Of a DNA stretch of 64,000 bases, positions 11,625-61,259 are shown piece by piece. Every line of letters begins with the position of its first letter. Within the stretch, counting starts at the first letter, position 1. The translations under genes and the position numbers were made by a program. The notes under the pieces are model-generated. The model saw nothing but the letters and a program-made list of their open reading frames with translations. It did not search any database and was not told where the DNA came from. Location of the stretch: assembly GCA_963712135.1 (NCBI GenBank), contig CAVQGV010000026.1, positions 388,671 to 452,670 on the forward strand, given 5' to 3'. Source of the stretch: an uncultured Gammaproteobacteria bacterium (GTDB taxonomy: Bacteria > Pseudomonadota > Gammaproteobacteria > Pseudomonadales > Halieaceae).

Positions 11625-11880
11625 AGATCAATGGCGATTGAGGGAGGGGATCTGGAAACGCAATGCAAGCATTGAGCAACCGTGTATGAAGCCCTCCGCT
11701 CCATCGTTGCGCATCACCAGGCAGGTGTCGGGCTCACAGTCGTCGACTGTATACCGTTGCGGGGGCAGCGGTGGATTGGGCAATTGCCGTTCCACACTTC
11801 CCATTTAACCCACCCAGTGAACAACTAAAATGTGCACGGTGGGCACCTGGTTACGGGGTGGACTCTAGAGATACGGAGTG
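11625..11880 (-). ncRNA. cobalamin (B12) riboswitch in the btuB leader
   Basis: Minus-strand read shows TTAAATGGGAAGTGTGGAACGGCAATTGCCCAATCCACCGCTGCCCCCGCAACGGTATACAG, matching the conserved AxGGGAA...GTG..AA...GCTG.C.CGCAACGGTA core of the E. coli btuB leader; positioned directly 5' of btuB. Confidence 0.6.
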
Positions 11881-26581: not shown

Positions 26582-28000
26582 TCAGAGCCCAAGATAGTCC
26601 CGGGTGATCGCGAAAATTTGCGGTTGTTGAATAAACGGCGGTATCCGTCCCAGGCTCTCGCTATTGCCGAACAGCGGGACAGCCGCTCCCGTGTGTTCCT
26701 CCTGTTTGAAGCTGTTCGTGGCGTAGTTGACCGCCATGTGACCGCCCTCGGGTGTCATTATCCGGGCCAGCTTACCCGGCGTGTAGATGGGAATGGGGAA
26801 AGCCGCGTAGAGGCTCTCATAGGGAACCAGCTGCGCCGCCTGGGCGTGATCCGCGGTCACCAGGATCAGTGTATGCAGATGTGTCTGCGCAAACGCCAGG
26901 GCGCTGGCCAGGGCCTCTTCCAGCTGCGCCACCTCACCGATCGAGCCACAGGGCTTGCGCTCGTGGGACTGTTTATCGATGGAAGCAGACTCGATCATCA
27001 GAAAGAAGCCCCTGTCGTTTTCGCGGCTCAGGTGGTGCAGGGCAGCGTCGGTCATTTGTTGCAGCGTTGGAACCTTGCGGAAGTCCGGATTGGGTTCACA
27101 GGCCATGGGTGCAGGCAGCGTCACGCTGCCCAGGTAGGGGTGTAGTCGATTGAGCCAGCTCGGCTTGGGTGTTTCCGCTTCCCGGCCACCTTCACCCTGT
27201 AAACGCACCGGCAGGGTGCTCGGGGCAAACAGGCCCAGCAGCCTCTGGTCCGGCGCTGCCGCCGCCAGCGCCGCCGCATTAGTGACCATCTGGAAACCGT
27301 GCCGCTGGGCCAGCTCTGCTACCGTCACGGTCTCGCCCTCGGCGGTAGGGGTAAAGTGTTCGCTGCCGCCGCCGAGTATCACGTGCAGGGAAGATGCCGC
27401 CAATTGCTCGGCAATTGAACCTTTGCCACCGTTCGCCTTCAGGTCGTTGGAGCAATCTCCCAGGGGAACATCTTTATAGCGGACGTTCACCATGGTGTCC
27501 GGGTCTTCGCACAGGCGAAAGCTTATGTGTGTAGCAAAGGCCGCGGGCGTGGCGTCAGTAACGCTGGCCGTTGTGACGATGCCCGAGCGCAGCCCAGCGG
27601 CAGCTGCCAGTTCGACGATGGTGGTGAAGTCTTTATCCGTGCCGGCGCTGGTGCTGATGCGCCCGGTACTGGTGACTGCCCCGGTGGCCATACTGGTGGC
27701 GGTATTGGCAGAGTCCGCGACATAGACAGGCTTGCCGTTCGGCCGTTCCTCGGTGGTGAGAATCTGCACCGCTGCGCGTAGCGGCATCTGGTCCAGTAGC
27801 AGCTGTCCGGCAGCGCCTTTGAGATAGTTGCGGGCGATTGTAATCTGCTGTTCGTCCATGCCATCGCCGATAATGAGGATCACCTGGCGGGGTTGCGTGG
27901 CAGGACTGGCGTTGGCCGTCAATGGGTTGTCCTGGGCCATCGCCAGCGCGGCACAGAGCAGGAGGCTGCCCAGCAGGCCGCGTGTCATTAACAGATTCAT
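26582..28000 (-). CDS. phoA: alkaline phosphatase (PhoA family)
   Basis: 472 aa with signal peptide; PhoA active-site regions (DSANTATSMATG, ADH..A). Confidence 0.9.
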   Translation of the reverse strand: MNLLMTRGLLGSLLLCAALAMAQDNPLTANASPATQPRQVILIIGDGMDEQQITIARNYLKGAAGQLLLDQMPLRAAVQILTTEERPNGKPVYVADSANTATSMATGAVTSTGRISTSAGTDKDFTTIVELAAAAGLRSGIVTTASVTDATPAAFATHISFRLCEDPDTMVNVRYKDVPLGDCSNDLKANGGKGSIAEQLAASSLHVILGGGSEHFTPTAEGETVTVAELAQRHGFQMVTNAAALAAAAPDQRLLGLFAPSTLPVRLQGEGGREAETPKPSWLNRLHPYLGSVTLPAPMACEPNPDFRKVPTLQQMTDAALHHLSRENDRGFFLMIESASIDKQSHERKPCGSIGEVAQLEEALASALAFAQTHLHTLILVTADHAQAAQLVPYESLYAAFPIPIYTPGKLARIMTPEGGHMAVNYATNSFKQEEHTGAAVPLFGNSESLGRIPPFIQQPQIFAITRDYLGL

Positions 28001-28206
28001 AGGATTATTCCATTATGCAGAAGCAGAAATCGCGTATTGATACCATGCCATTGGGGCCGATGCACGAGAACATCCGGCTTTGATCTACTGTAACAGGACG
28101 CTGTAGGCTGCGCCAAACTGTGGACGTTCCAGGGGGTACTACCCGACGCCCGGCAGCGGTCAGTATTGGCCAGTTAGCCTCTAAAACTGTGAGCAAAAAT
28201 ACTTAG

Positions 28207-28356
28207 CCACTACACCTTACAGACACAAAGATCAGGAACGCCAAGCCCCAGGAAAAGTCCTACCGCCTCTTCGATGAGCGGGGCCTATATCTGGAGGTTT
28301 CGCCCACGGGTGGCAAGTGGTGGCGCTTTAAGTATTCATCCGACGATTCTACCTAA
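28207..28356 (+). pseudogene. int: P4-type tyrosine integrase, N-terminal roughly 45 aa remnant only
   Basis: Translation LTDTKIRNAKPQEKSYRLFDERGLYLEVSPTGGKWWRFKY is the canonical N-terminal arm-binding (DUF4102) start of P4-like integrases; the ORF stops after about 45 aa. Confidence 0.7.
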
Positions 28357-28458
28357 TCCAGCTAGTTAAGTTGTCGGCACCAGAAATAGTAATCATTTAT
28401 TGATCGTGTGTTATTCCTATACTTGACCCTCGTAGGGTGATCCTTTATTGTCCGAGAA

Positions 28459-31013
28459 ATGGATGTAGATAAAAAATCTTCGGCGCCTGCCGCTGCGCCG
28501 AAGAAGCGTGTGATTCGCGCTTTCGGAACCTATCAGGCCGGTCTTGACGGCCTTCGCGGATATACCATCTTTTGTACTCTGCTTTTTCACGCCCGCTTGG
28601 GCCCCTACGAAGGTTTTTACCTGTCGTTGTCGCTGTTCTTCTCTCTCTCCGGTTTCCTGATAACAGCGATCCTACTCGATGACAGCGAGCGTGCCGGCCG
28701 ACTCGATCTCGTGCGTTTCGGCGCCCGTCGCCTCCGCCGCATCACTCCGGCCGCGCTCGCAGGCGTCGTGCTGGCCATAATCTTCGGCGCGACCATCGCG
28801 ACCCGCAGTCAGGCCGAGCAGCTTGTAGGCGATCTCATTGGCGTGGTCTTCTACGTGGTCAACTGGACCTTTATCGTCACGGAGCAATCATATATTGATG
28901 TTTTCTCCCCCCCTCCCCAGTTCAGCATTATTGGTCGCTCGCTGTCGAGGAGCAGTTTTACGCGGTGATCCCGTTGTTTTTGGGGATTCTTATGTGGGCC
29001 AGGGCTTCTCACCGTGTCGTCGTGGGCCTGCTGAGCACCGTAGTCATTGGCTCGACCTTCTGGATGTATTACCTCCACAGCACAGGCACCAGCATCGATC
29101 GCCTTTACTACGGGACCGATACGCGTATTGCCGAGGTGATGGTGGGTGTCCTGCTCGCCGTCGTCATGCACCACCGCAACGGCGCGATCAGTGAGAGGGT
29201 GCGGCAGATACTGTCGTGGGCAGGCTGGCTGGCGATCCTCGTCCTGGGCTACATGTGGACCAACTTCAGTATCACTGAGTCGTTCGCGTATCGGGGAGGG
29301 TTCCTGCTCAACGCGCTGCTCACCTCACTGGTGATCATGGCGATCATCTCCCGGCGTGGAATAATCGACCGTGTCTTCAATTGGCCCCCGGCAATCTGGG
29401 TCGGTGTCCTTGCCTATGGGCTCTATATCTATCATTTCGTGATCTTCCTCTGGCTGACGCCGGAGCGAACCGGGCTCGATCCGTGGCCAAACCTGGCCCT
29501 GCGGCTCGCGGTAACGTTCCTTTTCGCGTGGACCTCTCACCGTTTCCTCGAAATGCCCATCCTCAAGGGCGCGACGTTCGGCCTTCCCAAGGCTGGCCAA
29601 CTGATGCTCTATCCGGTCGTGGGGCTCACACTTATTGGCATCGCCAGCCTGACTGCCAACACAGGCGGCGCGGATCCCCTCGCGACACTGCGCGATGACG
29701 GGCGTTCGCAGCGAGCGCCGGTGGCCGCCGCGGACGGCGTACTCGATATTCTCGTTATCCACAGCGCGGAGCACGCAGCGATCGTCGATGAACTCGAAGC
29801 TAAGCTAGCTGATGACCCTCAGATTCGCGTCAGCGCCCGCTCCGTATTTTCCTGCGACGGCGGGTGGGTGGACGTCGACGGCTCTCCCACGTGTGCGAAC
29901 TGGGCCTCTGAATGGCCTGCTCTTATCGCCGAACACGACCCCGACAGTATCGTGTTTTTCGTCGACGACTGGGCCGGCGATGACATCAGCAAGTTCGCCA
30001 TCGAGGGCGCGGGGAGCAAACGGGCGATCGGCAGAGCCCTCCTCGGTACCGGATTCGACATACTCACATCCCAGGGCGCGTCCGTCAGCCAGATCGGATC
30101 GGGCCAGGCGTTTGCAACGGCCTTTGCCCGCGCTTTGTCGTCCCCCTTTTACCAATCGCTCGCCGACCTGAGTATGCGCCCCGACGTCAATCGGGGGAGC
30201 GATGGCTCCATGCCTAACCCGACCGAAGTCGACGCGACTGAGTATCTCAGCGCGTCCGCCGATGTCTTGCTCGAACTCGCCGTACTCTACCAACGTGCCG
30301 ACCGAGCGGGTATGCCGCGGGTTCTCATCATCGGCGACTCCCAGGCGCGCTCCCTCGGTTATGGCTTCGAGCGATGGGGTGTCGATCATGGTATTTGGGT
30401 GTGGAATGCCGCCACCAATGGTTGCGGTATTGCCGACGAGGGCTACGTCTACTACTGGGGTGAGAACAAGGAGGCTCCCCTCCGGCCGGAGTGCATCACG
30501 GCAGTAGCGGCGTACAAGGACCAGGTCGCGCGCTTCGAGCCCGACCTCGTGCTCGTGTTGTCGAGTGCATGGGACATCGGCCTGCGCCGACTCGATGGAT
30601 GGCCCGAGCCGCTACACGTGCAGAATCCGGAGTTCAAGGCCTACCTCACCCGCGAGTATCGCGAGGTCGCCGAGACTCTCACCGAACGCGGCGCGAAGGT
30701 CGTGTGGATGCAGGCGCCTTGTGTCGATAGGAGTACCGAAAATGCAACTCATATCAATTGGTTCACCCGCGACGACCTCGATACCCTCAATCTGGAGATT
30801 CTGCCGTCGATCGCGGCGGAGTATCCGGACAATATCGTGCTCTACGATCTCGACGAAATCCTGTGCCCTAGCGGTGAGGCTCTAGGTGAGATCGACGGCA
30901 TCTCGCCCATCCGCGGTGACGGCGTGCACTTCGGCCCCGAATCCAGCGGCTGGTTTGCCGAGACCTACGGCCCCTCAATACTCGAGGCAGGTGGCCTCGG
31001 CCCGTCACCCTGA
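28459..31013 (+). pseudogene. OafA/YrhL-like acyltransferase-3 with C-terminal SGNH-type domain(s), interrupted at a C7 homopolymer (28907-28913)
   Basis: N-terminal LDGLRG..LFH, then the conserved ...QHYWSLAVEEQFYAVIPLFLG motif in a different frame downstream of the tract tctcccccccctcccc; GC (about 65%) is higher than the flanks. Confidence 0.75.
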
Positions 31014-31066
31014 TCCCCGTCAGACTTCATATCAACATTCGCGAACTCGTGGTCGTTTTGGGTTAG

Positions 31067-31087
31067 CTAAGGCCACTGTGGCCTTAG
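31067..31087. terminator. perfect hairpin CTAAGGCCA-ctg-TGGCCTTAG downstream of the acyltransferase gene (no T-tract)
   Basis: 9-bp stem palindrome about 50 bp after the stop at 31013. Confidence 0.25.
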
Positions 31088-31301
31088 CGTGGATGGGGAT
31101 GGCTCATTACCTTAGAACTCTTTCTGCTGCTTGAAGCTCAACCACCCGCTTCTAAACCCCCGGACCGACAAAATGGCATAGATTCCGATCAGCCCTGCGT
31201 AGGTGTCCGGTTGGCGGTCCTGGTACTGCCAGATGTTGCCCGCGCGCAGGCTCTGTAATCCTGAGATCAGGTATTACTTGTAGTCTCGCGCTTTCGCGGG
31301 A

Positions 31302-32471
31302 TCAAATCTCAAACGATTCAATGTTTGCTCTGATATCGTTCATGAACCTGGCCGCGCCGATACCATTGACGATGCGATGGTCGAAGCAGAGTGTCGCATT
31401 AGCCATTGTTACGAACCGGAAAGAATCACCCTGAGGAAACGGATGTGCAAACGTTTCGCCAATAGCAAGGGTGGCTGCTGCAGGGGCGACGATGGCGGGA
31501 ATTCCCACGTGCATCCTGCCCATACCAATGTTCGAAACGCTGATAGTTGTGGCTTCATCGGCCTGGTCCTTGCCGTTGCGTGCCAGATCGACCTGTCTGT
31601 CATATGCCGCAAAAAATTCATTGGCTGAAAGCTGGTCAGCGTTACTGACTACTGCAGTGACCAATTCGTCGTTTGGTAATGCGACCGCAACCCCCAGGTT
31701 GACGTGGTGGAAGACTTTTAATGATTTTCGTTCGACATTTATGACACTGCGAAATTTCGGGCTATCTTGCAATGCTTGAACGACCGCCCAGCACAGCATG
31801 GCGAACTCTGTTGGCCCGCCGCTCGAGCGCACTTTATTACGCGCGCGCTCTAAAGAAGTCCATTCAATGTCGGTCATGATTGTGACCGGTATGCATCCTT
31901 TAGCACTTTGTGCGAGGCGGTAATTCAATACGATCTGGGATTTTGGTAGCGGCTCGATGGTATAGCGATCTGACAAAACGCTGGCAGCGGCTTGGCCGGC
32001 AAGGTAGGCGTCGACATCTTCGGGCATCAGCTTGCTGCCGGCGCTGGGAATGTGGTCCGCGATGTCGAGTAGATTGTGCTCTTTCAGATATTTTCTCGTC
32101 TTTGGAGGGATGAGAGTCCTGGTCGCGTGTCGCTGTACGCTCACGATTGGCGGTATACGTCCGCCACTGCTCCGGGAGGAAGACCCGTCCTGATCCGGCT
32201 GGTGCTCCGCGGAAACTTCCGCCACGCGATCGGCGACATCTATAGTCGCGATTACGGCCCCGATCGCCACGACTGAATCGGGCTCAAACAGCCATTCAAC
32301 GAGGGTGCCGCTGTAGGGTGACTCCACTTCCGTTGTGGCCTTGTCGGTTTCCATGGTGTAGATCGGCTCGTCGCGCGCGATCTTGTCCCCGGGTTTTTTA
32401 AGGCACTCGACAAGCAGTGCTTCGCGCAGGCCTTCGCCAAGTTGTGGAATTTTAATAGCAATGACGGCCAT
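31302..32471 (-). CDS. 2-oxoacid dehydrogenase E2 (dihydrolipoamide acyltransferase), single lipoyl domain
   Basis: Lipoyl-lysine motif METDKATTEVESP and catalytic DHRIVNG. Confidence 0.85.
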   Translation of the reverse strand: MAVIAIKIPQLGEGLREALLVECLKKPGDKIARDEPIYTMETDKATTEVESPYSGTLVEWLFEPDSVVAIGAVIATIDVADRVAEVSAEHQPDQDGSSSRSSGGRIPPIVSVQRHATRTLIPPKTRKYLKEHNLLDIADHIPSAGSKLMPEDVDAYLAGQAAASVLSDRYTIEPLPKSQIVLNYRLAQSAKGCIPVTIMTDIEWTSLERARNKVRSSGGPTEFAMLCWAVVQALQDSPKFRSVINVERKSLKVFHHVNLGVAVALPNDELVTAVVSNADQLSANEFFAAYDRQVDLARNGKDQADEATTISVSNIGMGRMHVGIPAIVAPAAATLAIGETFAHPFPQGDSFRFVTMANATLCFDHRIVNGIGAARFMNDIRANIESFEI

Positions 32472-32477
32472 GGCCCT

Positions 32478-34448
32478 TCAGTCCTCCAGTGTAAGTCGGA
32501 TTGCATCGATCACTTTATTCGTGTCTGGTAATGCAGCGTACTCGTAGTTCGGGTTGTAACCGATATATACGTCAGGTGTCGCGACCAGTTGCGGCGCGCT
32601 GACAAAATAGCAAAAGCTTTCCGGGTCGCCCATGATCTCACTGATAATCATCTGGCCGACGCTACACGAGCGATTGTCTTCCTGGACGATGACCAGCCGT
32701 CCGGTCTTTTCAACGGATGCCAGGATCGTGTCCTTGTCCCAGGGTTGGATCGAGCGCAAGTCAATGATCTCAATTGAGGCCTCCGGGGCCAGAAGGTCCG
32801 CCGCTGCGAGAGCCTGTTCAATGCAGTTCCCCCAGGCCACGAGGGTGACATCGTCACCCTCCCGACGAATTCGCGCCTCGCCAAACCCAACCGCAGGAAC
32901 GTCCTGCGGGACAGTCATTGGTTGGCGTAACAAGTGCTTTGGAATCAGGAAAATGGTGGGGTCATTCGCGTGCATTGATGTCCACATCAATGCCGCCGCA
33001 TCTTCCGGTGTACTGGGTACCACGACGCGGACTCCGGGACAGTGAGCGAGCAGGGATTCGTTAGCCTGGGAGTGCCACAGTGAACCGCCGGGAAGGTAGG
33101 CGCCGTAGGGCGCGTACAACACCATAGGGCAACACCACTCACCGTTGGACCGCCAGCGAAGTGTGGCAAGATTTTGTGTGATCTGGTTCATTGCCGGCCC
33201 CATGAAATCGACGAACTGGAGCTCGAAGATTGGTCGTTTTCCGAAACAGGCCATGCCAATTCCGATGCCTGCAATCGTGGCTTCGGCAAGCGGTGAGTTG
33301 AATACTCTGGCGGGGAAATGGTGTGACAGTTCGGCGGTCAGCCCGAATACCCCGCCCTTGGGGGCTTCTATATCTTCCCCGAAGAAAATGAATGATTCGT
33401 CTGTCTCGAGGCCGTGTTTAAAGGTCTGGTTAAGGGAGTCGACGATGCGCCAGGTTCTGTTTCCATCGATGGGTGGTTTCTCCGCAGCAGGAGGCTCGTC
33501 CAATAGTTGTGTCATCAGGTCGGCAGAAGTTGGATCCCCTTCGGCTTCTGCAGCGATGTATTCCTGTTCGATTTGTTGATCAATGTCCGCTTTGATAGAT
33601 TCCCACTCTTGCTCGCTCAGTTCGCCCGCCTCGATCATTTCCCGGGCGGTGACCAGAATCGGGTCCCGATCAAACATGGCGTCTATTTCTGCCTGGGGTC
33701 GGTAGACGCGGTGGTCATCAGAGCTTGTATGGGAACAAAGGCGGTCCAGTTCGGCGATGATTACAGTGGGTCCGCCACCACTGCGTGCTTTCTCCATTGC
33801 AGGTCGCGTTGCATTGAACACACGATCAGGATGCCGGGCGTCAATTCGCAGAAGATGGCTCTCGCCAAAAACTCCGAGCTTGAACGGGTTGAACCGGTCG
33901 GTGTTAGTGCTTATCCCGTAGTTATTGTCTTCAACAACAAACACCACAGGCAACTGCCGCTCGATTGCAAATGCGACGGCTTCGTAGAACTCCCCCTGCC
34001 TGGAGGCGGCGTCGCCAATCGTCGCAATAACAATATTGGGTTCATTGTCCAATTGCATGGACCAGGCAACACCACAGGCAGGGAGAGCATTGGCGGCGGT
34101 GGGCGTGAGTACGCTCCAGATGTTGCGTTCTTTGTCCGAGTAGTGGCCGGGCATTTGCCTGCCGCCGCTAGAGGAGCCGGCTTTTGCAAAATAGGCGCTG
34201 GCCAATTCGGCGTTGGTAACGCCTTTGGCCAGGACCATCGCGCGATCTCGATAGTAGGGAAACAGATAATCCCCAGAATACATCTGAATTGAAATGGCGA
34301 CCAGCGCTTCGTGTCCCATGCCTGCCACCTGAAACCAACCCTTTCCCTGGCGATGCAGAATACCCTCCCGGCGGTCGCCCTCGCGACTGAGGTACATCAA
34401 TTTCAGAAGCTCCAGTCGGTTACACGTTATGTTTGTCTGGGAGTTCAT
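32478..34448 (-). CDS. 2-oxoacid dehydrogenase E1 component, alpha-beta fused (TPP-dependent; pyruvate/acetoin-dehydrogenase-like)
   Basis: 657 aa with E1-alpha TPP motif (IGDAASRQGEFYEA...VVEDNNYGIST) followed by E1-beta transketolase-like domain; start at MNSQTN (34448); the stop overlaps the E2 start. Confidence 0.85.
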   Translation of the reverse strand: MNSQTNITCNRLELLKLMYLSREGDRREGILHRQGKGWFQVAGMGHEALVAISIQMYSGDYLFPYYRDRAMVLAKGVTNAELASAYFAKAGSSSGGRQMPGHYSDKERNIWSVLTPTAANALPACGVAWSMQLDNEPNIVIATIGDAASRQGEFYEAVAFAIERQLPVVFVVEDNNYGISTNTDRFNPFKLGVFGESHLLRIDARHPDRVFNATRPAMEKARSGGGPTVIIAELDRLCSHTSSDDHRVYRPQAEIDAMFDRDPILVTAREMIEAGELSEQEWESIKADIDQQIEQEYIAAEAEGDPTSADLMTQLLDEPPAAEKPPIDGNRTWRIVDSLNQTFKHGLETDESFIFFGEDIEAPKGGVFGLTAELSHHFPARVFNSPLAEATIAGIGIGMACFGKRPIFELQFVDFMGPAMNQITQNLATLRWRSNGEWCCPMVLYAPYGAYLPGGSLWHSQANESLLAHCPGVRVVVPSTPEDAAALMWTSMHANDPTIFLIPKHLLRQPMTVPQDVPAVGFGEARIRREGDDVTLVAWGNCIEQALAAADLLAPEASIEIIDLRSIQPWDKDTILASVEKTGRLVIVQEDNRSCSVGQMIISEIMGDPESFCYFVSAPQLVATPDVYIGYNPNYEYAALPDTNKVIDAIRLTLED

Positions 34449-34729
34449 TAGTTTTATCAGCTCCGCGGCGAGTTTCCCCCGGGGGGATCCTGCAACAGTG
34501 TAAAAAACAGTAAATGCAAAAATCAGGTCTATCAGGATACCTGATCGAGGTATTTCGCGGGCAGATGATAGCTCTTTGCGCCACGATAATGGGAGATAAC
34601 TCACACTTACTCCCCGATGATCTCCCACAGACGCTAGTCAGTGGGACTATTACGCTGCATGAACTCGGGCACTTGCTTCACCGGGGTTACCACGTTAGCT
34701 TTAGTCCCGTCACTTTTGGAGCAAGGCTG

Positions 34730-34918
34730 ATGAGTAAAATCAGGTATCACGATTTTATGCCAAAGGAAAAACAGCGGGGCGGCTTGTTTGGCGGGGTGGA
34801 TTTTTCCGGGTTTGACAGCTGTGTTAGTGCCATGAATGATTGGCTGGCGCAGAAACCGGTGAATGTTATCCGCGTGGAGACGGTTACCCTGCCCAATATC
34901 CACAATGTAAAATTATAG
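34730..34918 (+). CDS. small conserved hypothetical protein, paralog A (62 aa, probably C-terminally truncated)
   Basis: 55% identical over 60 aa to the ORF at 48132-48407 (GLFGGVD(F/Y)S.F.SCV.AMN.WL.Q.PV..(I/V).VETVTLPN(I/M)H.V). Confidence 0.4.
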   Translation: MSKIRYHDFMPKEKQRGGLFGGVDFSGFDSCVSAMNDWLAQKPVNVIRVETVTLPNIHNVKL

Positions 34919-35188
34919 GAAATATTAAGGCCCTGTTGAAAGTAGATCCCCCCGCTGATTCTGTTACCACGCGCCTGTCAACTGGGCTTGCTGATCTGTC
35001 GATTTTCCCGCCTATTGACCCGAAAATTCTGTTCGCGGCGTTAAGCATGCCATTCAAATCCGTTCATTCCTGAACGGGTGCACGCGACAGCCCATGGCAT
35101 GTGGTTTTCACTGGCTTTCTTGATAGTGGAGTGCTGTTGTGCTGGAATCCTTTCCAGCGAAAAGAGCCAATGTCTCAGGTGGTGCCCA

Positions 35189-36352
35189 AGGGAAGCTCTG
35201 AAAAACTCCAGTAGTCTGGCATACTTTGAGGAACCTGATCCAGAGATAGAATGCTATGGGCCAGCTGACCTTTGCCGAAGCGGAATATGCCAATAAGAAG
35301 CGTAAAACTCGTCGGGAGAAGTTTCTGGAGAAGATGGATGAGTTAATGCCCTGGGCGCGGCTGGAAAAAAAGATTGCCCGGTATTATGTGAAGCCGGGTA
35401 ACCAGGGAGGAAGACCGCCCTATCCGCTGTCGACCATGCTCAGGGTGCACTGTCTGCAACTGTTCTACAACCTGAGCGATCCCGGCATGGAGGACGCCCT
35501 GTACGAAGTGGAGTCGATGCGCCGGTTTGCACGAATCAGCCTGGACCGCGTGCCGGATGAGACCACCATCCTGAACTTCCGGCACCTGCTGGAGCGTCAT
35601 GAGTTGGGTAAAAAGCTGTTCAAGGAGATCAATGCGCACCTGCATGACAACGGCCTGATGCTGCGCGAGCGCACTATTGTTGACGCCACCATCATTGCCG
35701 CGCCCACCTCGACAAAGAACCCGGAAGGCGAACGAGATCCGGCTATGCACCAGGTGAAGAAGGGCAATGAATGGCACTTTGGCATGAAGATGCATATCGG
35801 AGTGGACGACGCCCTGAGCCTGATCCACAGTGTGGAGACCACGCCAGCCAACGAGCATGACATCACCGTGGCGGACAAATTGCTGCACGGGGAGGAGCGG
35901 CGAGTCTGGGGCGACGCGGGGTATGTTGGCATCGACAAGCGCAGGGAACATGAGGACCGCGAGACGGACTGGTTGATAGCTTTGCGTCCTGGGCATCGTC
36001 GACTGCTGGAGGCGGGCAGTGAGCTTGCTGAGGCGGAGCGGATCAAAGCCAGCGTGCGCGCCAAGGTGGAGCACGCATTCTTCTACATCAAACGGATGTT
36101 TGGTTATAGCAAGGTGCGTTACCGGGGACTGGAGAAAAACACCAATCGGCTGTACGTGTTGTCGGGGCTGTCCAATCTGTTGCGCAGCCAGAAATACCTG
36201 CTGGCGTGGGGTGAGTGCGCCTGAATTCTGCGAAATGGCGGAATTCAGGAGAAGAAACGAACACTACGGACAGATTCGTTGCCGGAATTTAGGCTTTGCC
36301 GGGGCGAACTCGGGTTGAAGCAAGAATCGAGAGGTTAATCAGAGCTTCCCCA
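35189..36352 (+). mobile_element. IS5-family insertion sequence (about 1.16 kb)
   Basis: Imperfect terminal inverted repeats GGGAAGCTCTGA (35190-35201) and TCAGAGCTTCCC(C) (about 36339-36351) flanking a DDE transposase gene. Confidence 0.65.
35256..36224 (+). CDS. IS5-family DDE transposase
   Basis: 322 aa with high similarity to E. coli IS5 InsH across its length (LTFAE.E.SKRR.TRRE.FL..M...PW, YNLSD..MEDALYE..SMRRFAR, HFGMK.HIGVD, DAGY.G, RAKVEH.F..IKR.FG). Confidence 0.85.
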   Translation: MGQLTFAEAEYANKKRKTRREKFLEKMDELMPWARLEKKIARYYVKPGNQGGRPPYPLSTMLRVHCLQLFYNLSDPGMEDALYEVESMRRFARISLDRVPDETTILNFRHLLERHELGKKLFKEINAHLHDNGLMLRERTIVDATIIAAPTSTKNPEGERDPAMHQVKKGNEWHFGMKMHIGVDDALSLIHSVETTPANEHDITVADKLLHGEERRVWGDAGYVGIDKRREHEDRETDWLIALRPGHRRLLEAGSELAEAERIKASVRAKVEHAFFYIKRMFGYSKVRYRGLEKNTNRLYVLSGLSNLLRSQKYLLAWGECA

Positions 36353-38304: not shown

Positions 38305-39280
38305 GTGAACTGGCAACATCACCATGCCACCATCAACGGCATACACATGCACTATGTGGAGCAGGGGGAGGGCATGCCGGTGGTGCTGTGCCACGGCTTT
38401 CCCCACCTGTGGTTTAGCTGGCACCGGCAAATCAGTGCACTGGCTGATGCGGGCTACCGGGTAATTGCCCCGGACATGCGCGGTATGGGACAGACCGAGG
38501 CACCACCTGATCCGTCATCCTACGACATTGATCACATCACTGGCGACCTGCTGGGGTTACTCGATCATATCGGCGTGGAGCGCGCAGTATTTGCCGGCCT
38601 GGATTTCGGCGCCTTTGCTATCTACGACCTTGCCCTGCGCCACCCCGAGCGCGTCATCGCGCTGATTGGCCTGGAGAATCCGGCGGCGCCCCATAATCCT
38701 GCACGAGCCTCCGCTCACCGAGTACCGGCGCATGGGGCAGGCGCATTTTCTGCATATCGAGTACTTTCGCGTGCCGCCGCGGGCCGACGAGGAACTTGCA
38801 GCGCAGCCGCGCCGCTTCCTGCACAAGGTCTTCCATACGCTGAGTGGTGCGGGTAATTATTTCGATGTGTTCAATTACCCGCCGGGTACGGCCTATATCG
38901 ACGCCATGGCCGAACCGCCGCCGCTGCCCTGGCCATGGTTGTCCGAGCTAGAGCTGGAATTTTTTGTCAGCGAGTACAGCCGCAGCGGATTTACCGGTGG
39001 CCTCAATTGGTACCGCTCATTCGACTTGAAGTGGGCGCAGCGCAAGCCCTTCGAAGGCGTGCAAAGCGCGGTGCCCGCGTATTTCCTGGGCAGCGAGCAC
39101 GATGTGGACCTGGAGGGTTTTCACGGCGATGATCCCATCGCCCAGATGCGGGCGATTTTTCCCGGAATTGCGCGAGGTGCGCATGATTCCCGGTGCGGGT
39201 CATATGGTGCAGTTGGAAGCGTCGAGTGAAGTGAATGCAATTCTGCTCGACTACCTGCAGGATATTCGGCAGCGCCTTTA
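38305..39280 (+). pseudogene. alpha/beta-fold hydrolase (epoxide-hydrolase-like) with two frameshifts (about 38690 and about 39185)
   Basis: HGFPHLWFSWHRQ motif and nucleophile elbow region; the remainder continues in two other frames and ends ...IPGAGHMVQLE... Confidence 0.6.
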
Positions 39281-41403: not shown

Positions 41404-42762
41404 GTGATTGCGGCCCGATTTAGTGGTGCGCTCGAGCGTTGTCCCGAACGCCCCTTTTTACTGAGTGCTGCCATCGAATACAGCTATTCCGATTTTTTTC
41501 AATACTGCCGCAAGCTGGGTAACGGGTTTTCTAAACTTGAGGGAAGCCGACTGGCTTGCCATATGGCTGATTCACCCGTGTTGGTCGCCGTGATGCTCGC
41601 TGCGGGGATGAGCGGTAAGTCCCTGCTAATGCTGAACCGCGACTTCACAGATCAACAGTTGCCCGACTTGTTGCAGCGCTATAAAGTGGATGTGCTGATC
41701 AGTGATTCAGTGCCAACAGTCGCAATTCCCGCTAGTTTGCAGAGCGCTGATACACTAGATCGACTGTCCACTGGTGCGCCACTGCATAACTACAGTGAAG
41801 GCGAAATACTGATTTTGACATCCGGAACGACGGGGCAGCCCAAATGTGCTCGCTACACATGGGCCGATCTTTTTGCTCAGGTAAGTGAACGGCATGCACC
41901 GGCGGATGAGCGCTGGCTGCTGGCCTACCGCCTCAATCACTTTGCTGGCTTGCAGATGTTGGTTCACGTTCTGCAAAACCGCAGCACCCTGGTTCTGGCA
42001 GAATCGACGCGAGTCGCCCATGCACTTGACACCATGCAAGCATTTGCCGTCACACATGTCAGTTCCACCCCCACTTTTTGGCGATATGCGCTGGCAACTC
42101 TGCCCGCAGCGGGGCATAAGTTGAAACTCAAGCATATTACACTTGGCAGCGAAGCGGTTTCGTCGTCCTTACTGGAACGGCTACACCATACATTCCCCGA
42201 TGCCCGTATTGTCCATATTTATGCATCTACCGAAGCTGGTTCCTGTGTCTCTGTTAGTGATATGCGTGCTGGGCTGCCAATTTCAATATTGCATCGGGAT
42301 GCTAATGCAGATGTGCAGTTCCGCGTGGTACAGGACGAGCTGCATATCCGCAGTGCGCATGGAATGCGCGGCTACGCAGGCCCGGGAGAGATTGCCAGTA
42401 AGGATGAGGATGGTTGGCTCGCTACGGGGGATCTTGTGCGAATCGAGGATGACCGAATACTCTTCATGGGCAGACGATCAGAAACTATCAATGTCGGTGG
42501 TGTCAAGGTACATCCAATGGAGGTAGAGAATGTGATTTCTTCTCTCCCTGGAGTAAAGCTGGCGCGTGCGTTTGGAAAAGACAATCCTGTAGTGGGTCAA
42601 ATTGTAGCCGTGGAAGTGGTAATTAATTCAGGCTGTAACGAACCGGAAGTCGAGGAATCCATCCGCGAAGCCTGTTTGGTGCTGACCCGCCATGCGCGCC
42701 CACGAATCATCACTTTTGTTGATACAATAGAAACCAATAATTTCAAACTAAAAAGGCAATAG
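41404..42762 (+). CDS. ANL-superfamily adenylating enzyme (AMP-binding), short form, candidate carrier-protein ligase
   Basis: 452 aa; AMP-binding core TSGTTGQPK; translationally coupled to the upstream carrier protein (stop/start 41401/41404). Confidence 0.8.
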   Translation: MIAARFSGALERCPERPFLLSAAIEYSYSDFFQYCRKLGNGFSKLEGSRLACHMADSPVLVAVMLAAGMSGKSLLMLNRDFTDQQLPDLLQRYKVDVLISDSVPTVAIPASLQSADTLDRLSTGAPLHNYSEGEILILTSGTTGQPKCARYTWADLFAQVSERHAPADERWLLAYRLNHFAGLQMLVHVLQNRSTLVLAESTRVAHALDTMQAFAVTHVSSTPTFWRYALATLPAAGHKLKLKHITLGSEAVSSSLLERLHHTFPDARIVHIYASTEAGSCVSVSDMRAGLPISILHRDANADVQFRVVQDELHIRSAHGMRGYAGPGEIASKDEDGWLATGDLVRIEDDRILFMGRRSETINVGGVKVHPMEVENVISSLPGVKLARAFGKDNPVVGQIVAVEVVINSGCNEPEVEESIREACLVLTRHARPRIITFVDTIETNNFKLKRQ

Positions 42763-42770
42763 AGCGCACA

Positions 42771-43493
42771 ATGAAAGTAGTGCTTATCAGCGGCGGCAGC
42801 AAGGGTCTTGGTGCAGGCCTGGTGGACAGTTTCCTAGGTCGCGGGTTCAAGGTTGCTACCTTTAGTCGCGCTGCAACTGACACGACCAAACAGTGGCAGC
42901 AGCAATATGGTGACAATTTCTATTTTGAAACCTTGAGCTTAGCCGACAAGGCTGCATGCAAACAGTACGTAGAAAATGTTCAGCGGCAACTGGGCGATAT
43001 CAATATCCTGGTTAACAATGCCGGAGTTGCACATACAGCGTTGTTGGCACTGACCGACGACGAAGCCATTGATCGCCTGATCGACACCAATCTCAAGGGC
43101 ACCTTTTACCTGACCCGTCTGGTCTGCCGCCCAATGCTTTCTTTGGGTTGGGGGCGCATCATCAATATATCGTCTATTGTCGGTCTTTCTGGTTATCGCG
43201 GCCTTTCAGTGTACAGCGCCACCAAAGCTGGCTTGGATGGCTTTACGCGTTCTCTTGCCAGGGAATTGGGCTCTCGTAATATTACTGTCAACTCTGTCGC
43301 GCCAGGTTATCTCACCACGGAAATGACGGAGGAACTGGGTGCCAGGCAGCGTCGTCAGATAGTCGGGCGCACACCGATGGGGCGCATGGGCACAGCCGAG
43401 GATGTTGCCGGCGCAGTTCAATTTTTGGCTGGTGACGACGCTAACTTCATCACAGGCCAGGTACTTGTTGTCGATGGGGGCATTACCTGCTAA
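42771..43493 (+). CDS. SDR-family oxidoreductase (FabG-like 3-oxoacyl reductase)
   Basis: 240 aa; N-terminal GGSKGLG Rossmann motif, NNAG, catalytic S...YSATK. Confidence 0.85.
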   Translation: MKVVLISGGSKGLGAGLVDSFLGRGFKVATFSRAATDTTKQWQQQYGDNFYFETLSLADKAACKQYVENVQRQLGDINILVNNAGVAHTALLALTDDEAIDRLIDTNLKGTFYLTRLVCRPMLSLGWGRIINISSIVGLSGYRGLSVYSATKAGLDGFTRSLARELGSRNITVNSVAPGYLTTEMTEELGARQRRQIVGRTPMGRMGTAEDVAGAVQFLAGDDANFITGQVLVVDGGITC

Positions 43494-44350
43494 TGGCCGA
43501 TTTGCCCGTATCTCCCATTTCCCCCGGCAGCGAACCGGTGCACCACTACGATACCGTGGTGGGCGCCTGGGGCGATCTGCTTGAGGAAGACCTGCATTAC
43601 GGCTATTTTCACAGTGGCAATGAATCACTCATTGAAGCCACCAATGAACTCACCAACCAGATGCTGAACCTGGCTGAGCTTCGATCTGGTCTTCATGTGC
43701 TAGATGTGGGCTGCGGTACTGGTAAAGCCGGCTGCCGCTTGGCGGGGGAGTACGCTGCGAGGGTAACCGGCATTTCGCCCAGCAGCGCCTGCGTAGAAAG
43801 AGCCCAGGCGTTGGCGAGGGAAACGAGGCAGCAGGATCTCGCTATTTTTTGTCACGGCGATGGCACATCTCTGTCCTTCGATGACAATACCTTTGATTGC
43901 GTTTGGGTGATGGAATCCTCACACCTGATGCAGGACAAGAAGGCGCTTATCTCAGAGTGCACGCGGGTACTTCGTCCCGGCGGACGTGTTGTACTTTGCG
44001 ACATCATGGTCAAACGCAAACTTACTTTGGAAGAAGTTATCGAGTACCGGGACGAATTTCTGCTTCTTAGAGACGTCTTCGGTCGAGCGATCATGGAGCC
44101 ATTGCAATTCTATCGGCAGCAGTTCGAGTCCAAAGGGTTAAATGTTGCTGCCGCGTCAGATATTTCTGCGCCCACATACCACACTTTTGCGCGGTGGCGC
44201 CAGAATGCCTATGAAAACCGGGAGAGCGTTTGCAGAATGATTGGCGAGCGTGCCTGGGAGCAATTCATATTATCCTGTGATGTGTTGGAGCAGTTTTGGC
44301 AGAGTAATATCCTTGGCTATGGAATTATCTGCGCGCACAAATACGCGTAG
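43493..44350 (+). CDS. class I SAM-dependent methyltransferase (CFA-synthase / mycolate-MT-like)
   Basis: 285 aa; VLDVGCGTG motif I; N-terminal YDTVVGAWGDLLEEDLHYGYF resembles the CMAS family; start overlaps the SDR stop. Confidence 0.7.
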   Translation: MADLPVSPISPGSEPVHHYDTVVGAWGDLLEEDLHYGYFHSGNESLIEATNELTNQMLNLAELRSGLHVLDVGCGTGKAGCRLAGEYAARVTGISPSSACVERAQALARETRQQDLAIFCHGDGTSLSFDDNTFDCVWVMESSHLMQDKKALISECTRVLRPGGRVVLCDIMVKRKLTLEEVIEYRDEFLLLRDVFGRAIMEPLQFYRQQFESKGLNVAAASDISAPTYHTFARWRQNAYENRESVCRMIGERAWEQFILSCDVLEQFWQSNILGYGIICAHKYA

Positions 44351-44354
44351 CGAC

Positions 44355-45893
44355 TCAAAACTGGAAGTACAGAAATTCGCTGACTTCCGTCAGGTTTACA
44401 ATAGATGCAACGGCCAGAACAGCAATACCAACAGACCAGCCCCGACTGGCCTGCCACTGCAGACTGATCACTGGTTCCCGACCCGCCAGCGGTTTGTCAA
44501 TGGCAACCTCGCAGTGGCGAAAAAGCTGGTAAGTGCTGGGCAGTATCCAGCAAGCTGCCAAAGCCATTGCAAGAAGCAGGAAAACCACACTGACTGCGTA
44601 GCTTTCCCCGAATAACATGGAAGTGAGTTGAAGGTTTTTATTACCCTTCAGTGCGGCCATGTACTCAGGCACAAACTGCAGCCCATCCCAGTTAAGGATC
44701 GCGTTATACACATGGCCAGCTGAGGCCAGATTATCTGCGCGAAAAACCACCAGGGTTAACGCCACCACCAAAAACGTAAGCAGCTGTGCCGCTGCCTTAT
44801 AATCTCTTCTGCCCACCAGTCCCAGCGGCCCGGAAACCTTGATCCGCCAGAGTTGATGGATCACCACGTAACTACCATGACAAAGTCCGTATACGACAAA
44901 GGTCCATCCGGCGCCGTGCCAGACCCCACCGATGAACATCGTGGCGAACAGGTTAAATCTTTGCCTTGCAGGACTACAGAAAAATCCGCCCAGGGGAGTG
45001 TAGACATAGTCCCTGAGGAAACGAGAAAGAGTGGCGTGCCACATACGCCAGAAATCGCTGATATTCAATGCTCGATAAGGCGAAAAGAAATTTACTGGAA
45101 GTTTGATTCCGAACATGCAGGACAGTCCAATAGCCATATCGCAGTAACCGGAGAAATCAAAATAGAGCTGGAAAGCGTAACTGAATGCTCCGGCAAGCGC
45201 ATCGAGTGTAGAAAGATTGCTGCCCTGCGACGCCAGAGAAAAAACTGGCGTTGCGAACTTGGAAAAGCCATCGGCAATAACAACTTTCTTAAACAGGCCA
45301 ACAACCATGATAGATAGCCCAATACTTAGATTAGTATAGGTTCTTGAACGGTCGGTGAGCGTTCTGAACTGTGACAACATCTCTCGGTGATGCACGATTG
45401 GACCAGCAATCAGCTGCGGGAAAAAAGCAACAAATAGGCAGTATTCAAGGAATCCGTGGTCTTCGGTAAGCCCTTTGCGGGAATCCACCAGATAGGCAAT
45501 CTTCTGGAAAGTGAAAAAAGAAATCCCAAGGGGCAAGATGATCTTCTCGAACTCGAAGCTCCAATCCATTGCCACCCGGAAATTATCAATAAAGAAATTA
45601 GCGTATTTAAAATAGCCCAGCAGGCCGAGATTGAACAGCACTCCGAGCACCAGCCAATGACGACCCTGATTTTTCCCGCCCTTGGCAAGCAAGGTGCCCA
45701 GAAAATAATTCACGCAAGCGGAGAAGATCAGCAGCAGCAGGTAGACTGGGTTCCACCAGCCATAAAAAAACATTGAGGAACTAACCAGCCAGATCAAGAT
45801 CAGGCGAAGATTGCCGACTTTTTGCAGAAACAGGAATCCCGCCAACACCACGGGTAGGAAGAAAAAAAGAAACTCACTGGAATTAAATAGCAT
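44355..45893 (-). CDS. MBOAT-family membrane-bound O-acyltransferase (AlgI/DltB-like)
   Basis: 512 aa; conserved FWRRWH-like motif (FWRMWHATLSRFLRDYVYTPLGG) and GGVWHGAGW; catalytic His region. Confidence 0.85.
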   Translation of the reverse strand: MLFNSSEFLFFFLPVVLAGFLFLQKVGNLRLILIWLVSSSMFFYGWWNPVYLLLLIFSACVNYFLGTLLAKGGKNQGRHWLVLGVLFNLGLLGYFKYANFFIDNFRVAMDWSFEFEKIILPLGISFFTFQKIAYLVDSRKGLTEDHGFLEYCLFVAFFPQLIAGPIVHHREMLSQFRTLTDRSRTYTNLSIGLSIMVVGLFKKVVIADGFSKFATPVFSLASQGSNLSTLDALAGAFSYAFQLYFDFSGYCDMAIGLSCMFGIKLPVNFFSPYRALNISDFWRMWHATLSRFLRDYVYTPLGGFFCSPARQRFNLFATMFIGGVWHGAGWTFVVYGLCHGSYVVIHQLWRIKVSGPLGLVGRRDYKAAAQLLTFLVVALTLVVFRADNLASAGHVYNAILNWDGLQFVPEYMAALKGNKNLQLTSMLFGESYAVSVVFLLLAMALAACWILPSTYQLFRHCEVAIDKPLAGREPVISLQWQASRGWSVGIAVLAVASIVNLTEVSEFLYFQF

Positions 45894-46247
45894 AGATTGG
45901 CCGTGTTCATCTCGGCTGCTAATTCGTTGACGTCCTTGGCCCGAAAGTATATCTTCTTTTACGATAAGTCAGTAGGGATAATGCGAGTCAGAATCGGTAG
46001 CTAGCTATCGGTTTGCAGCATATTAGCTATCTGCGGATTGATATGCTGGTTTCCACACAATCAATACCCAGCAATACATGCGGTATCAACATCGAGTTAT
46101 CGAAGACGGTTATCCTGGCTCTACCGGATTGCGTGGTATACAGTGGCAATCCCGCTGGCTTACTGCCGGTGTAGCGGGGCTATTGCTGAGTATCAGACTG
46201 CCCAACCTAATCGCCGTCAATGAATTTATATACTTTCAGTTCTATTT

Positions 46248-47450
46248 ATGAAGCAATATCTTTTCGGCACTTTAGTACTCATATTTGGCTTCTGCTTGTT
46301 GGTAGCCCTGTTCAATTACCGTGTCGACCCCTACGCAATTTATCACTACAAACAGGTGAATGCAGACTGGCTGAGTCGGATTGATCAGTTCCTCCATTTA
46401 CGGATAACAAAACCTTGGCACGTTGTGCAAATAAAACCTACGGCGATCATTGTGGGGACATCAAGATCTGCATCGGTGAACCCAATGCATTCCACCTGGC
46501 CCCAAAACGCTAGCTACAATCTGTCAATTCCCGGCCTGACGTCGTATGAAATGCTACGATTTATCGAGCATGCCCAGGCTAATGGACCTGTCAGCAAGCT
46601 GATGATTGGGTTAGATTTTGAGGCTTTCATTCATCCGGAGCCACGTTTCCAGTTTGGTTTTGAGGAGTCGCGGATGGCCCGTGATCCCGATGATCTGGCT
46701 TCGGCACATTTTATCTGGCAGCTCATGAGCGATATGAGAAACACATTGTTATCGATGTCGGGTATTAGCCAGAGTGTAATGGCGCTCACCGGCAGTGCGG
46801 AAGTGGGTCGTCGCTATTTTTCGGACGGGACTTGGGAAAGTACCCAATCAAGATTCACGGGTAGACCAGGTTATATCTATATTGGTAAGGAAACTGTATT
46901 TGATCAGCGAAATGAGAAGCTGAGCCTTGATAGAAATCTGGACAATTTCGCTGACATATTGCGCTTTTCCCATCGACAGAAAATAGAAACACGCCTGTTC
47001 ATCACACCCCAACATGTATTCATGATTGATCTTTGGTGGCGTCTGGGTTACAGAGAATTGTGGAAAGAGTTCCACCGCCGTCTGGTAGAGGTAAATGATG
47101 CGGTAGCTATTGAGATGGGAGTTGAGCCTTTTCCTATATTTGGATTTAATCATCTACGGGGGGTTGTCGATGAGCCTATTAGCAGTGCTCAGAATTCCAC
47201 TCGTTCCTTGTTCAGCGATGGCTTGCACTTTCGACCACGACTCGGGAAGCAAATCATGGATGCAGTGTGGACTGATGGTGCTGAGTTGGGAGCTAAACTG
47301 GATGTCAATTCAGTTAATTCCTATCTGTCTCAGGTAGAACAGTTGCATCATACATTCGAGTCTGCCAATACAGAACTCACTGCAGCGTCTACGTCGGGGG
47401 ATTTCCCCCGAATTGGAATAGCTGGCGGCGGTATTTGTGGCCGAAGCTAA
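46248..47450 (+). CDS. N-terminally membrane-anchored extracytoplasmic protein, candidate DltD/AlgJ-like O-acyl transfer partner of the MBOAT
   Basis: 400 aa; single N-terminal TM; IVGTSRSA segment in the position of the DltD GSSE-type nucleophile motif; divergently paired with the MBOAT gene; function is inferred from context. Confidence 0.35.
   Translation: MKQYLFGTLVLIFGFCLLVALFNYRVDPYAIYHYKQVNADWLSRIDQFLHLRITKPWHVVQIKPTAIIVGTSRSASVNPMHSTWPQNASYNLSIPGLTSYEMLRFIEHAQANGPVSKLMIGLDFEAFIHPEPRFQFGFEESRMARDPDDLASAHFIWQLMSDMRNTLLSMSGISQSVMALTGSAEVGRRYFSDGTWESTQSRFTGRPGYIYIGKETVFDQRNEKLSLDRNLDNFADILRFSHRQKIETRLFITPQHVFMIDLWWRLGYRELWKEFHRRLVEVNDAVAIEMGVEPFPIFGFNHLRGVVDEPISSAQNSTRSLFSDGLHFRPRLGKQIMDAVWTDGAELGAKLDVNSVNSYLSQVEQLHHTFESANTELTAASTSGDFPRIGIAGGGICGRS

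Positions 47451-49844: not shown

Positions 49845-49848
<4 letters not shown>
48466..49848 (-). CDS. fumC: class II fumarate hydratase
   Basis: 460 aa; GSSIMPGKVNP signature. Confidence 0.9.
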
Positions 49849-52527
<2,679 letters not shown>

Positions 52528-60827: not shown

Positions 60828-60905
60828 GTGTTGGTACGGGAGTCGAACCCGCGACAGCCAGATTCATGGTCTGGTGCTCTACCACTGAGCTAACCTCGGT
60901 TGACA
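60828..60905 (-). tRNA. tRNA-like gene (T-loop GGGTTCGACTCC, D-arm AGCTCAGTGGTAGAGC); acceptor pairing imperfect, anticodon loop CCATGAA (possibly CAT)
   Basis: Manual fold; the acceptor stem could not be paired cleanly. Confidence 0.35.
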
Positions 60906-61081: not shown

Positions 61082-61091
61082 ACGTTGTCAG

Positions 61092-61251: not shown

Positions 61252-61259
61252 ATGTCAAG

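Follow-up and report, generated by a model that had tools for sequence, protein, structure and literature searches.

An AT3-SGNH acyltransferase gene split at a short cytosine tract in an uncultured gammaproteobacterium: probably a young slippage pseudogene

The split gene and its predicted product

The DNA analysed here (the window, 64 kb in all; positions below are those of the window) comes from an uncultured gammaproteobacterium of the Halieaceae. Its plus strand carries, at 28459–31013, a gene for a putative membrane-bound sugar O-acyltransferase in which an N-terminal acyltransferase-3 (AT3) domain is fused to a C-terminal SGNH domain. The reading frame is broken in a run of seven cytosines (C7). 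A first-pass annotation, made from the letters alone, had placed the break inside this run at 28907–28913, just before a conserved motif, and this was exact: bases 28900–28919 read GTTTTCTCCCCCCCTCCCCA, the frame shifts at codon 151, and the invariant PSPVQHYWSLAVEEQFY motif follows directly. The gene and its parts are as follows.

28459–31013, plus strand: acyltransferase gene with a −1 frameshift, 851 amino acids (aa) if the tract is C8; assigned from Pfam, PHROG, an AlphaFold model and fold matches
28459–28968, plus strand: open reading frame (ORF) A, 169 aa; the 150 N-terminal residues of the enzyme and an out-of-frame tail of 19 aa
28907–28913, plus strand: C7 homopolymer, the frameshift site; C8 in the related locus L006, CCGCCCCC or CCGACCCC in all other orthologues
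28965–31013, plus strand: ORF B, 682 aa, in a frame different from that of ORF A; its GTG start overlaps the stop of ORF A (GTGA)
about 28537–29534, plus strand: AT3 domain (Pfam)
about 29730–30293, plus strand: extra non-catalytic alpha/beta domain, residues ~425–612 (AlphaFold model)
about 30306–30959, plus strand: SGNH domain (Pfam)

Tract lengths were edited in silico. Of the two versions proposed in the first-pass annotation, eight cytosines gave one uninterrupted ORF of 851 aa and six did not; C5 gave 850 aa, and C9 did not restore the frame. Around the tract the C8 product reads ...DVFSPPSPVQHYWSLAVEEQFY..., or over a longer stretch ...SYIDVFSPPSPVQHYWSLAVEEQFY.... In the C7 allele, ORF A holds transmembrane helices (TMH) 1–4 with the R-X10-H, FFxLSG and RXXR motifs, and ORF B, from residue 170 onward, holds the remaining AT3 domain, the middle domain and the SGNH domain. 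AT3-SGNH enzymes are single polypeptides, and the C7 allele yields 169 and 682 aa instead. No part of the family is better conserved than the PSPVQHYWSLAVEEQFY motif (P152–Y168), and neither ORF encodes it. Since this motif is missing from both, and the catalytic residues of TMH1–3 are cut off from the rest, each product should be inactive; function as a split protein was rejected because the most conserved motif is absent from both ORFs. The exact protein of ORF A is on record from the 452,670-bp NCBI/ENA contig, from ENA ERZ25039462 and from Logan ERR12036777, and ORF B is identical to P0122 of the 452,670-bp contig.

The repaired protein was indeed the AT3 and SGNH protein of about 850 aa that had been predicted. 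Pfam assigned Acyl_transf_3 (PF01757) to residues 27–359 (E-value 2.3e-16) and the C-terminal SGNH domain (PF19040) to residues 617–834 (E 1.3e-15), and the PHROG 'O-antigen acetylase' family (PHROG 6705) matched with an E-value of 7e-64. The AlphaFold model (mean per-residue confidence, pLDDT, 81.8) comprises a helical bundle (residues 27–399), the alpha/beta domain and the SGNH domain; its best fold matches in the PDB were PatB, a Campylobacter GDSL esterase and the periplasmic domain of OafB (6se1). A sequence search of the PDB with the acyltransferase gave no matches. The diagnostic motifs of the family have been defined as R/K-X10-H in TMH1, an FFxISG-type motif, RXXR, and GDS and DxxH in blocks I and V of the SGNH domain (PMC7448272). 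All are intact in the repaired protein (R33-X10-H44, FFSLSG 60–65, RRLRR 90–94, GDS 626–628 and DGVH 821–824), and the diagnostic AT3-SGNH residues, including G626-D627-S628 and D821-x-x-H824, are invariant across 21 homologues. That every catalytic motif is still intact argues for a young lesion. By analogy with the OafA/OafB family, the AT3 domain (10–11 helices) would take an acyl group from acyl-CoA in the cytoplasm and carry it across the membrane, and the SGNH domain would then move it onto an extracytoplasmic glycan.

Two further observations concern the protein. The alpha/beta domain (residues ~425–612) is confidently modelled, has conserved Cys and Trp residues but no catalytic triad, and lies outside every Pfam model; a role in acceptor binding may be considered. 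Codon 584 of the repaired protein (30207–30209), in the linker ahead of the SGNH domain, encodes Ser, Phe and Leu in the three C7 haplotypes and differs in L006 as well, which points to a hot spot of mutation or else to a site under selection.

The tract site and the gene in related loci

The sequence at the tract was compared among the loci found for the gene. Each line gives the reading at the site, the identity to the window and the state of the ORF.

L002–L004: TCC GCC CCC TCC CCA; 91% at the nucleotide level; intact, 837 aa
L005 and L091: GCT GCC CCC TCC CCG; ~83% nucleotide (79% aa); intact, 851 aa
L007: GCT GCC CCC TCC CCG; 83% nucleotide; nonsense mutation at W136
L008: TCC GAC CCC; 94.6% nucleotide; nonsense mutation at W332
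L006 (Logan SRR32390732): C8; 98.3% over 27624–35016 (7.4 kb); intact, 849 aa
window, L001 and L010: C7; 99.1–100%; split

The locus L006 has the same flanks as the window (phoA-like, E2 and E1 genes) and an intact ORF with C8. As C8 also restores the ORF of the window, tract length toggles the gene between close relatives, C7 being out of frame and C8 in frame. The homopolymer itself is confined to the clade of the window and L006; it is not conserved across orthologues, as L002–L005, L007, L008 and L091 read CCGCCCCC or CCGACCCC. In 20 aligned homologues residue 151 is A, S, L or D and never P, and the next residues, P152-S153-P154, are invariant in the 21-sequence alignment. Since the other orthologues all read CCGCCCCC or CCGACCCC, the homopolymer is best taken as a lineage-specific accident, a G-to-C change that replaced Ala151 by Pro. 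The first-pass annotation had asked for the same tract in related strains, and had named its absence from orthologues with a conserved N-terminus as evidence against phase variation. The close strain L006 indeed carries the tract, as C8 and with an intact gene; in the distant orthologues, with their conserved N-terminus, it is missing, so that the second expectation was largely borne out.

Within the clade of the window, C7 was found in all four contigs, which represent three haplotypes 0–4 aa apart. L010 (Logan ERR12036777, assembled from k-mers) is 100% identical to positions 28021–30132 of the window (2112 nucleotides), C7 included. L001 (ENA ERZ25039462) has C7 too; across 7 kb of unique sequence, 10 single-nucleotide polymorphisms (SNPs) and no indels separate it from the window. 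The contig from ERR12035931 encodes a 682-aa ORF B with 4 aa changes, together with an upstream ORF that overlaps it by 4 nucleotides. The protein cluster at 90% identity has six members, of which one is full length (P0124, from L006), and a homologue search of a collection of 15 billion proteins returned no full-length (ON) copy of the window haplotype. Intact and broken states are accordingly coupled to phylogeny in this small sample, with four C7 contigs and a lone C8 on the 1.8%-divergent allele of L006. A literature search for the sample accessions found no paper.

The gene has been lost in other lineages too. L007 differs from the intact L005 and L091 in nothing but a change of TGG to TAG at W136, and L008 carries TGG to TAG at W332. 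Together with the C7 frameshift, these make three knock-outs by three different lesions.

The relatives of the protein point to Actinomycetota. Full-length homologues at 50–67% identity are annotated as Acidimicrobiales. Among GTDB species representatives the scan found no close relative: the best 80 loci were nearly all from Actinomycetota, at 49% identity or less, the others being one from Myxococcota and one from a metagenome-assembled genome (MAG) of Chloroflexota. Closer copies (79–94%) lie on metagenome contigs, one of them labelled Gammaproteobacteria, and the metagenome scan returned a single locus, L091. The gene neighbourhoods differ: in L005 the gene lies between prc and cysG-serS-crcB-rarA, L002–L004 share with the window only 28382–30997 and 31078–31209, and L008 shares the gene alone. 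On this sequence evidence the 850-aa subfamily is essentially actinobacterial (Acidimicrobiia), with copies in a few uncultured gammaproteobacteria in unrelated chromosomal contexts. The actinobacterial relatives and the differing gammaproteobacterial contexts argue that the gene was acquired horizontally and has been moved or re-acquired.

Readings of the frameshift

We lean towards reading the locus as a young slippage pseudogene passed on by inheritance, the gene itself having been acquired horizontally from Acidimicrobiia-like Actinomycetota. A membrane sugar O-acyltransferase gene would have been imported by horizontal transfer, and now lies beside a defunct integrase remnant, on the left margin of a segment that strains share almost unchanged (see below). 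In the ancestor of the strain group, the G-to-C change (Ala151 to Pro) would have turned CCGCCCCC into C8, which is still intact in L006. Replication slippage would then have dropped one C, taking C8 to C7 and shifting the frame at codon 151, and every known member of the window's clade would carry the C7 lesion by descent. A +1 slippage could in principle restore the frame; no such reversion was seen in the contigs of that clade. From the observed sequence states, domain content, phyletic pattern and reproducibility across assemblies we infer the direction of the change, the loss of function and the absence of switching. A slippage pseudogene fits the clade-restricted tract, a state that follows phylogeny, the reproducible C7, the parallel nonsense knock-outs and a decaying genomic background. 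The ratio of non-synonymous to synonymous substitution rates (dN/dS) was 0.20–0.25 in deep comparisons, 0.34 between the window and L006 and 0.45 between the window and L008; the higher recent values suggest relaxed constraint.

Several points weigh against this account. The rise in dN/dS rests on few substitutions (two synonymous and two non-synonymous in the C7 clade). The reverse order, in which a G deletion gave C7 and a +1 slippage then gave C8 in L006 (one OFF-to-ON reversion), is equally parsimonious. The tract lengths are those of assembled contigs, with which a mixture of C7 and C8 within the sample is compatible, and thus possible. The four C7 contigs may come from one project, and perhaps from one sequencing platform. 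Finally, both differences in G/C runs from L006 leave the window one base shorter: C7 against C8 at the tract, and G6 against G7 at 34481–34486, where L001 has G6 as well. Systematic under-calling of homopolymers would yield exactly this pattern; a C6 run is of equal length in the window and L006.

The last two points lead to the alternative of a sequencing or assembly artefact, in which the true tract is C8, the gene is intact and the platform under-calls long G/C homopolymers in every assembly. We consider this unlikely, while giving it real weight. The repeat-rich 452-kb MAG contig and the 'contig_N' names in L001 suggest long-read assemblies, and many further genes of the window are frameshifted, with acnA broken at other positions in a related MAG. 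Against an artefact, C7 recurs on three haplotypes and in four contigs, which derive from three or more read sets or assemblers; L010 is completely identical over 2112 nucleotides, and the unique sequence of L001 has not one indel. The nonsense mutations in L007 and L008, moreover, show that the gene is truly being lost in nature. The sequencing error named in the first-pass annotation as the trivial alternative is thus weakened by the reproducibility of C7, and still stands.

The other frameshifts of the window bear on the same question. The gene acnA, for aconitase A (PF00330 and a C-terminal domain; 49845–52403, minus strand), is split into at least five frame segments of otherwise well conserved aa sequence, with two +1 insertions near 52100, +CC at ~51748, a complex +1/+4 lesion at ~51270 and +1 at ~50795; the related MAG contig with a differently broken acnA is of 63,203 bp (P0209, P0261). 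The gene btuB, for a TonB-dependent B12 receptor (9737–11603, minus strand), lies behind a cobalamin riboswitch (11703–11865) and has four frameshifts and five segments, which are 95–99.6% identical in aa sequence to the intact 621-aa orthologue P0258; three of the four frameshifts are single-base insertions at non-homopolymer sites. Over both genes, eight of nine lesions are insertions, mostly of 1–2 nucleotides at non-homopolymer sites, a bias towards insertion. A preference of these insertions for codon boundaries was considered and dropped (three of five on re-parsing against references, not significant). The acnA and btuB lesions were not found in independent contigs, the fragments on record coming from the source contig alone, and no exact match came up when homologues of an acnA fragment were searched for. 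These lesions are confined to particular genes and lie mostly outside homopolymers, which is not the signature of under-calling, and ~29 kb of long ORFs in the window are intact; this makes it unlikely that the assembly is error-prone throughout, and decay of particular genes by multiple hits is the simpler reading for this genome.

A functional contingency locus, in which C7 and C8 are the two states of a slipped-strand ON/OFF switch of a surface-glycan acyltransferase within populations, had been the proposal of the first-pass annotation. We regard it as distinctly unlikely. The tract does lie at codon 150 of 851, within the first fifth of the ORF, ON (C8) and OFF (C7) alleles occur among strains less than 2% apart, and the OFF allele keeps all catalytic residues. 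The tract is also the sole G/C run of at least seven in the window, where such runs are otherwise strongly avoided: one was observed where mononucleotide shuffles predict 14.7, and for runs of at least six the count was 7 against an expected mean of 51. Selection to lose or vary the modification could lie behind the repeated knock-outs in sister lineages. However, the tract is missing from every orthologue outside one shallow clade, and state tracks phylogeny exactly, with four contigs of three haplotypes OFF and one contig ON. No ON form of the window haplotype turned up in the protein collection searched, the other lineages lost the gene through nonsense mutations, which are irreversible, and the genome has unrelated decayed genes. 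A tract of 7–8 C is, moreover, marginal in length, since C runs of 7–8 are at the bottom of the range for frequent slippage. Of the proposed switch, then, the toggling of the ORF by tract length between close strains stood, and what fell away was a conserved tract with a state free of phylogeny: a homopolymer only as old as one shallow clade, whose state follows phylogeny, argues against an evolved switch.

Surface acetylases of the AT3 family do include phase-variable genes, and a close parallel is oafA of Haemophilus influenzae (PMC9558356). This AT3-family lipooligosaccharide O-acetylase is phase variable, a simple-sequence repeat in the 5' part of the gene toggling its frame, and oafA was first seen frameshifted in the Rd reference genome (PMC9558356). 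The gene studied here is alike in family, in a frame toggled by a simple repeat in its 5' part, and in having been first seen frameshifted. In oafA, however, strains share a conserved array of tetranucleotide repeats, and the gene has been shown to switch, with a link to whether isolates are from carriage or invasive (PMC9558356), whereas the repeat here is a C7/C8 run limited to one shallow clade, with a state that tracks phylogeny.

A variant of the switch would make it new-born rather than evolved: one G-to-C change would have put a recently imported cell-surface acyltransferase of actinobacterial type under the control of slippage, with C8 (L006) and C7 (window) as its two states. The knock-outs in sister lineages would then be the outcome of selection acting on this surface modification, with phage or host as possible agents. 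This, too, seems to us rather improbable.

Recoding of the C7 allele into full-length protein, through a −1 shift of the ribosome on C_CCC_CCU or through an extra C put into the mRNA by transcriptional slippage, is most improbable: the zero-frame CCC-CCU after a C formally fits an X_XXY_YYZ heptamer and a −1 shift would give ...FSPPSPVQHYW..., but no stimulatory structure lies downstream (folding of 28900–29000 has a z-score of −0.17), the heptamer is not conserved in orthologues, and the intact sister allele is simply C8. Polymerase slippage at homopolymers rescues frameshifted genes in endosymbionts, at poly(A) tracts; C runs of 7 are poor slippage templates beside A/T runs of 9 or more.

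Surroundings, known systems and meaning

The slippage pseudogene favoured here lies among the following features of its immediate surroundings.

28021–28204: left end of the segment shared between strains, with a boundary at ~28020
28216–28356, plus strand: stub of a dead P4-type tyrosine integrase, ~40 aa and a short tail to TAA; arm-DNA-binding domain only
28423–28451, plus strand: sigma-70-like promoter match TTGACC-17-TATTGT, a weak lead, ending 8 nucleotides before the ATG
31066–31088: perfect palindrome with 11-nucleotide arms, GCTAAGGCCAC T GTGGCCTTAGC, 53 nucleotides past the stop codon
31078–31209: downstream segment, 82% shared with the L002–L004 loci; its minus strand reads as an ORF tail, ...GLIGIYAILSVRGFRSGWLSFKQQKEF and a stop codon

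The integrase stub had been recognised in the first-pass annotation, rightly: LTDTKIRNAKP...WWRFKY (28216–28335) matches Arm-DNA-bind_3 (PF13356; E 5.4e-12, profile positions 1–39 of 83), the NCBIfam integrase PRK09692 (E 6e-7) and a PHROG integrase. An intact tyrosine recombinase has arm-binding and catalytic domains; the stub has no catalytic domain after it, no start codon (no ATG) and an in-frame TAG four codons upstream, and L006 has indels within it at 28315 and 28327–8. The statement that no tRNA or tmRNA site is visible nearby also held. ARAGORN and Rfam (at gathering thresholds, and with E-values up to 5 over 27950–28480) found neither near the stub, nor any fragment of a tRNA or tmRNA, the nearest tRNAs being at 60.8–63.9 kb. 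A repeat search found no attachment (att)-like direct repeats above chance flanking the segment. An inverted pair of 11 nucleotides (28019–28029 and 31121–31131), one arm of which begins exactly at the left boundary, was rejected as att, being one of 25 chance-level pairs, and the similarity between strains runs far past 31131.

The left boundary, ~28020, lies 20 nucleotides past the start codon of the divergent phoA-like gene (26582–28000, minus strand). SNP density against L006 falls from ~10% (27624–28020) to at most 1% exactly at 28020, and L001 and L010, independent contigs, both begin at 28019–28021. Divergence from L006 of at most 1% spans the stub, the acyltransferase, E2 and E1 genes (28021–35016), with ~3.5% locally in the SGNH-coding part (30000–31000). 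The sharp mosaic boundary suggests recent recombination or transfer of the entire right-hand segment. The gene does not stand out in composition. It had been described as a GC-rich islet (~65% against ~57% in the flanks), which did not hold: the gene has 60.8% GC and 73.1% GC at third codon positions (GC3), the window 57.6% GC, and the neighbouring phoA-like gene 61.8% and 72.7%; amtB and ppx are similar. With GC and GC3 no different from those of the host genes beside it, the gene forms no islet.

For the sigma-70-like match, one such site was found where 1.5 are expected by chance; it falls in the part conserved with orthologous loci (from 28382 or 28422 onward). The palindrome past the stop codon is likely to be a terminator or a REP-like hairpin, and the minus-strand ORF tail at 31078–31209 has no Pfam match. 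Further right, an insertion sequence (IS; 35256–36224, a 322-aa transposase with DDE_Tnp_1 and DUF772) beyond the E1 and E2 genes is intact in the window, split by indels in L001 (7238–8189), and partial and inverted in L006 (7385–7984), which makes this a strain-variable IS site. A palindromic CCCCCGGGGGG (34476–34486) lies just upstream of the probable true start of E1 (Met61 of a 716-aa ORF), and a stretch of 165 nucleotides is repeated at ~73% identity (34740–34904 and 48146–48310), being called as a 62-aa gene in L001 and L006.

Elsewhere in the window, an epoxide-hydrolase-like alpha/beta hydrolase gene (38305–39229, plus strand) is present as two overlapping ORFs with a frame change near GCGCCCCATAAT at ~38690, and there is a truncated NnrS fragment. 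A 5'-truncated group II intron remnant (53861–54819, plus strand) retains the C-terminal part of the reverse transcriptase and the maturase domain, followed by an Rfam Intron_gpII match (54745–54819). A tRNA array (60833–63917, minus strand) of 15–16 genes, including five Arg isoacceptors, is overlapped by long spurious ORFs. A block of lower GC (41404–47450; GC3 48–56% against ~73% elsewhere) carries a gene for an MBOAT-family O-acyltransferase (44355–45893), next to a 400-aa ORF without a Pfam match; this may be a foreign segment with another system for acylating surface polymers, unrelated to the first.

Among known systems, the predicted protein resembles the O-antigen O-acetyltransferases OafA and OafB of Salmonella (PMC7448272, PMC9833829) in its fusion of an N-terminal AT3 to a C-terminal SGNH domain and in the same diagnostic motifs, and its modelled SGNH domain matches the periplasmic domain of OafB (6se1) as well as PatB. 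Unlike OafA and OafB (600–640 aa) it has ~850 aa, with an extra alpha/beta domain of ~190 aa between AT3 and SGNH, and it belongs to an actinobacterial and not an enterobacterial subfamily; its gene lies outside any O-antigen cluster and is frameshifted. The best NCBIfam match over the AT3 part (residues 9–370) is SucT of Mycobacterium smegmatis (NF058601), an actinobacterial cell-envelope acyltransferase, in keeping with the Actinomycetota neighbourhood. Its score of 82.6 bits is far below the equivalog cut-off of 1275 bits, so that the protein is not SucT, from which it also differs in length and C-terminal organisation. Of the earlier assignment to O-antigen or lipopolysaccharide (LPS) acetylases, then, membership of the family stands; the O-antigen or LPS part has no support beyond that membership. 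The subfamily is essentially actinobacterial, the gene has no glycan-cluster context, and the nearest relatives, Actinomycetota, have no LPS.

The arm-binding stub upstream, the PHROG match and the boundary at 28020 recall P4-type islands and the O-antigen acetylases of phages (Sf6 Oac; PHROG 6705). Unlike such islands and lysogenic-conversion phages, the locus has no integrase catalytic domain, tRNA or tmRNA target, att repeats or other phage genes, and, unlike P4-type islands, other lineages carry the gene alone between housekeeping genes.

Taken alone, the case adds little, being another example of an accessory gene inactivated in a MAG. It serves as a worked example of how a homopolymer frameshift can be judged from orthologous DNA, by the age of the tract and by its state set against phylogeny. 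If C7/C8 mixtures were found to be true, the locus would show a single point mutation giving rise to a phase-variable gene. For the family, the data point to an 850-aa AT3-SGNH subfamily with an extra alpha/beta domain that is typical of Acidimicrobiia, appears to have spread to a few gammaproteobacteria and has repeatedly been lost there.

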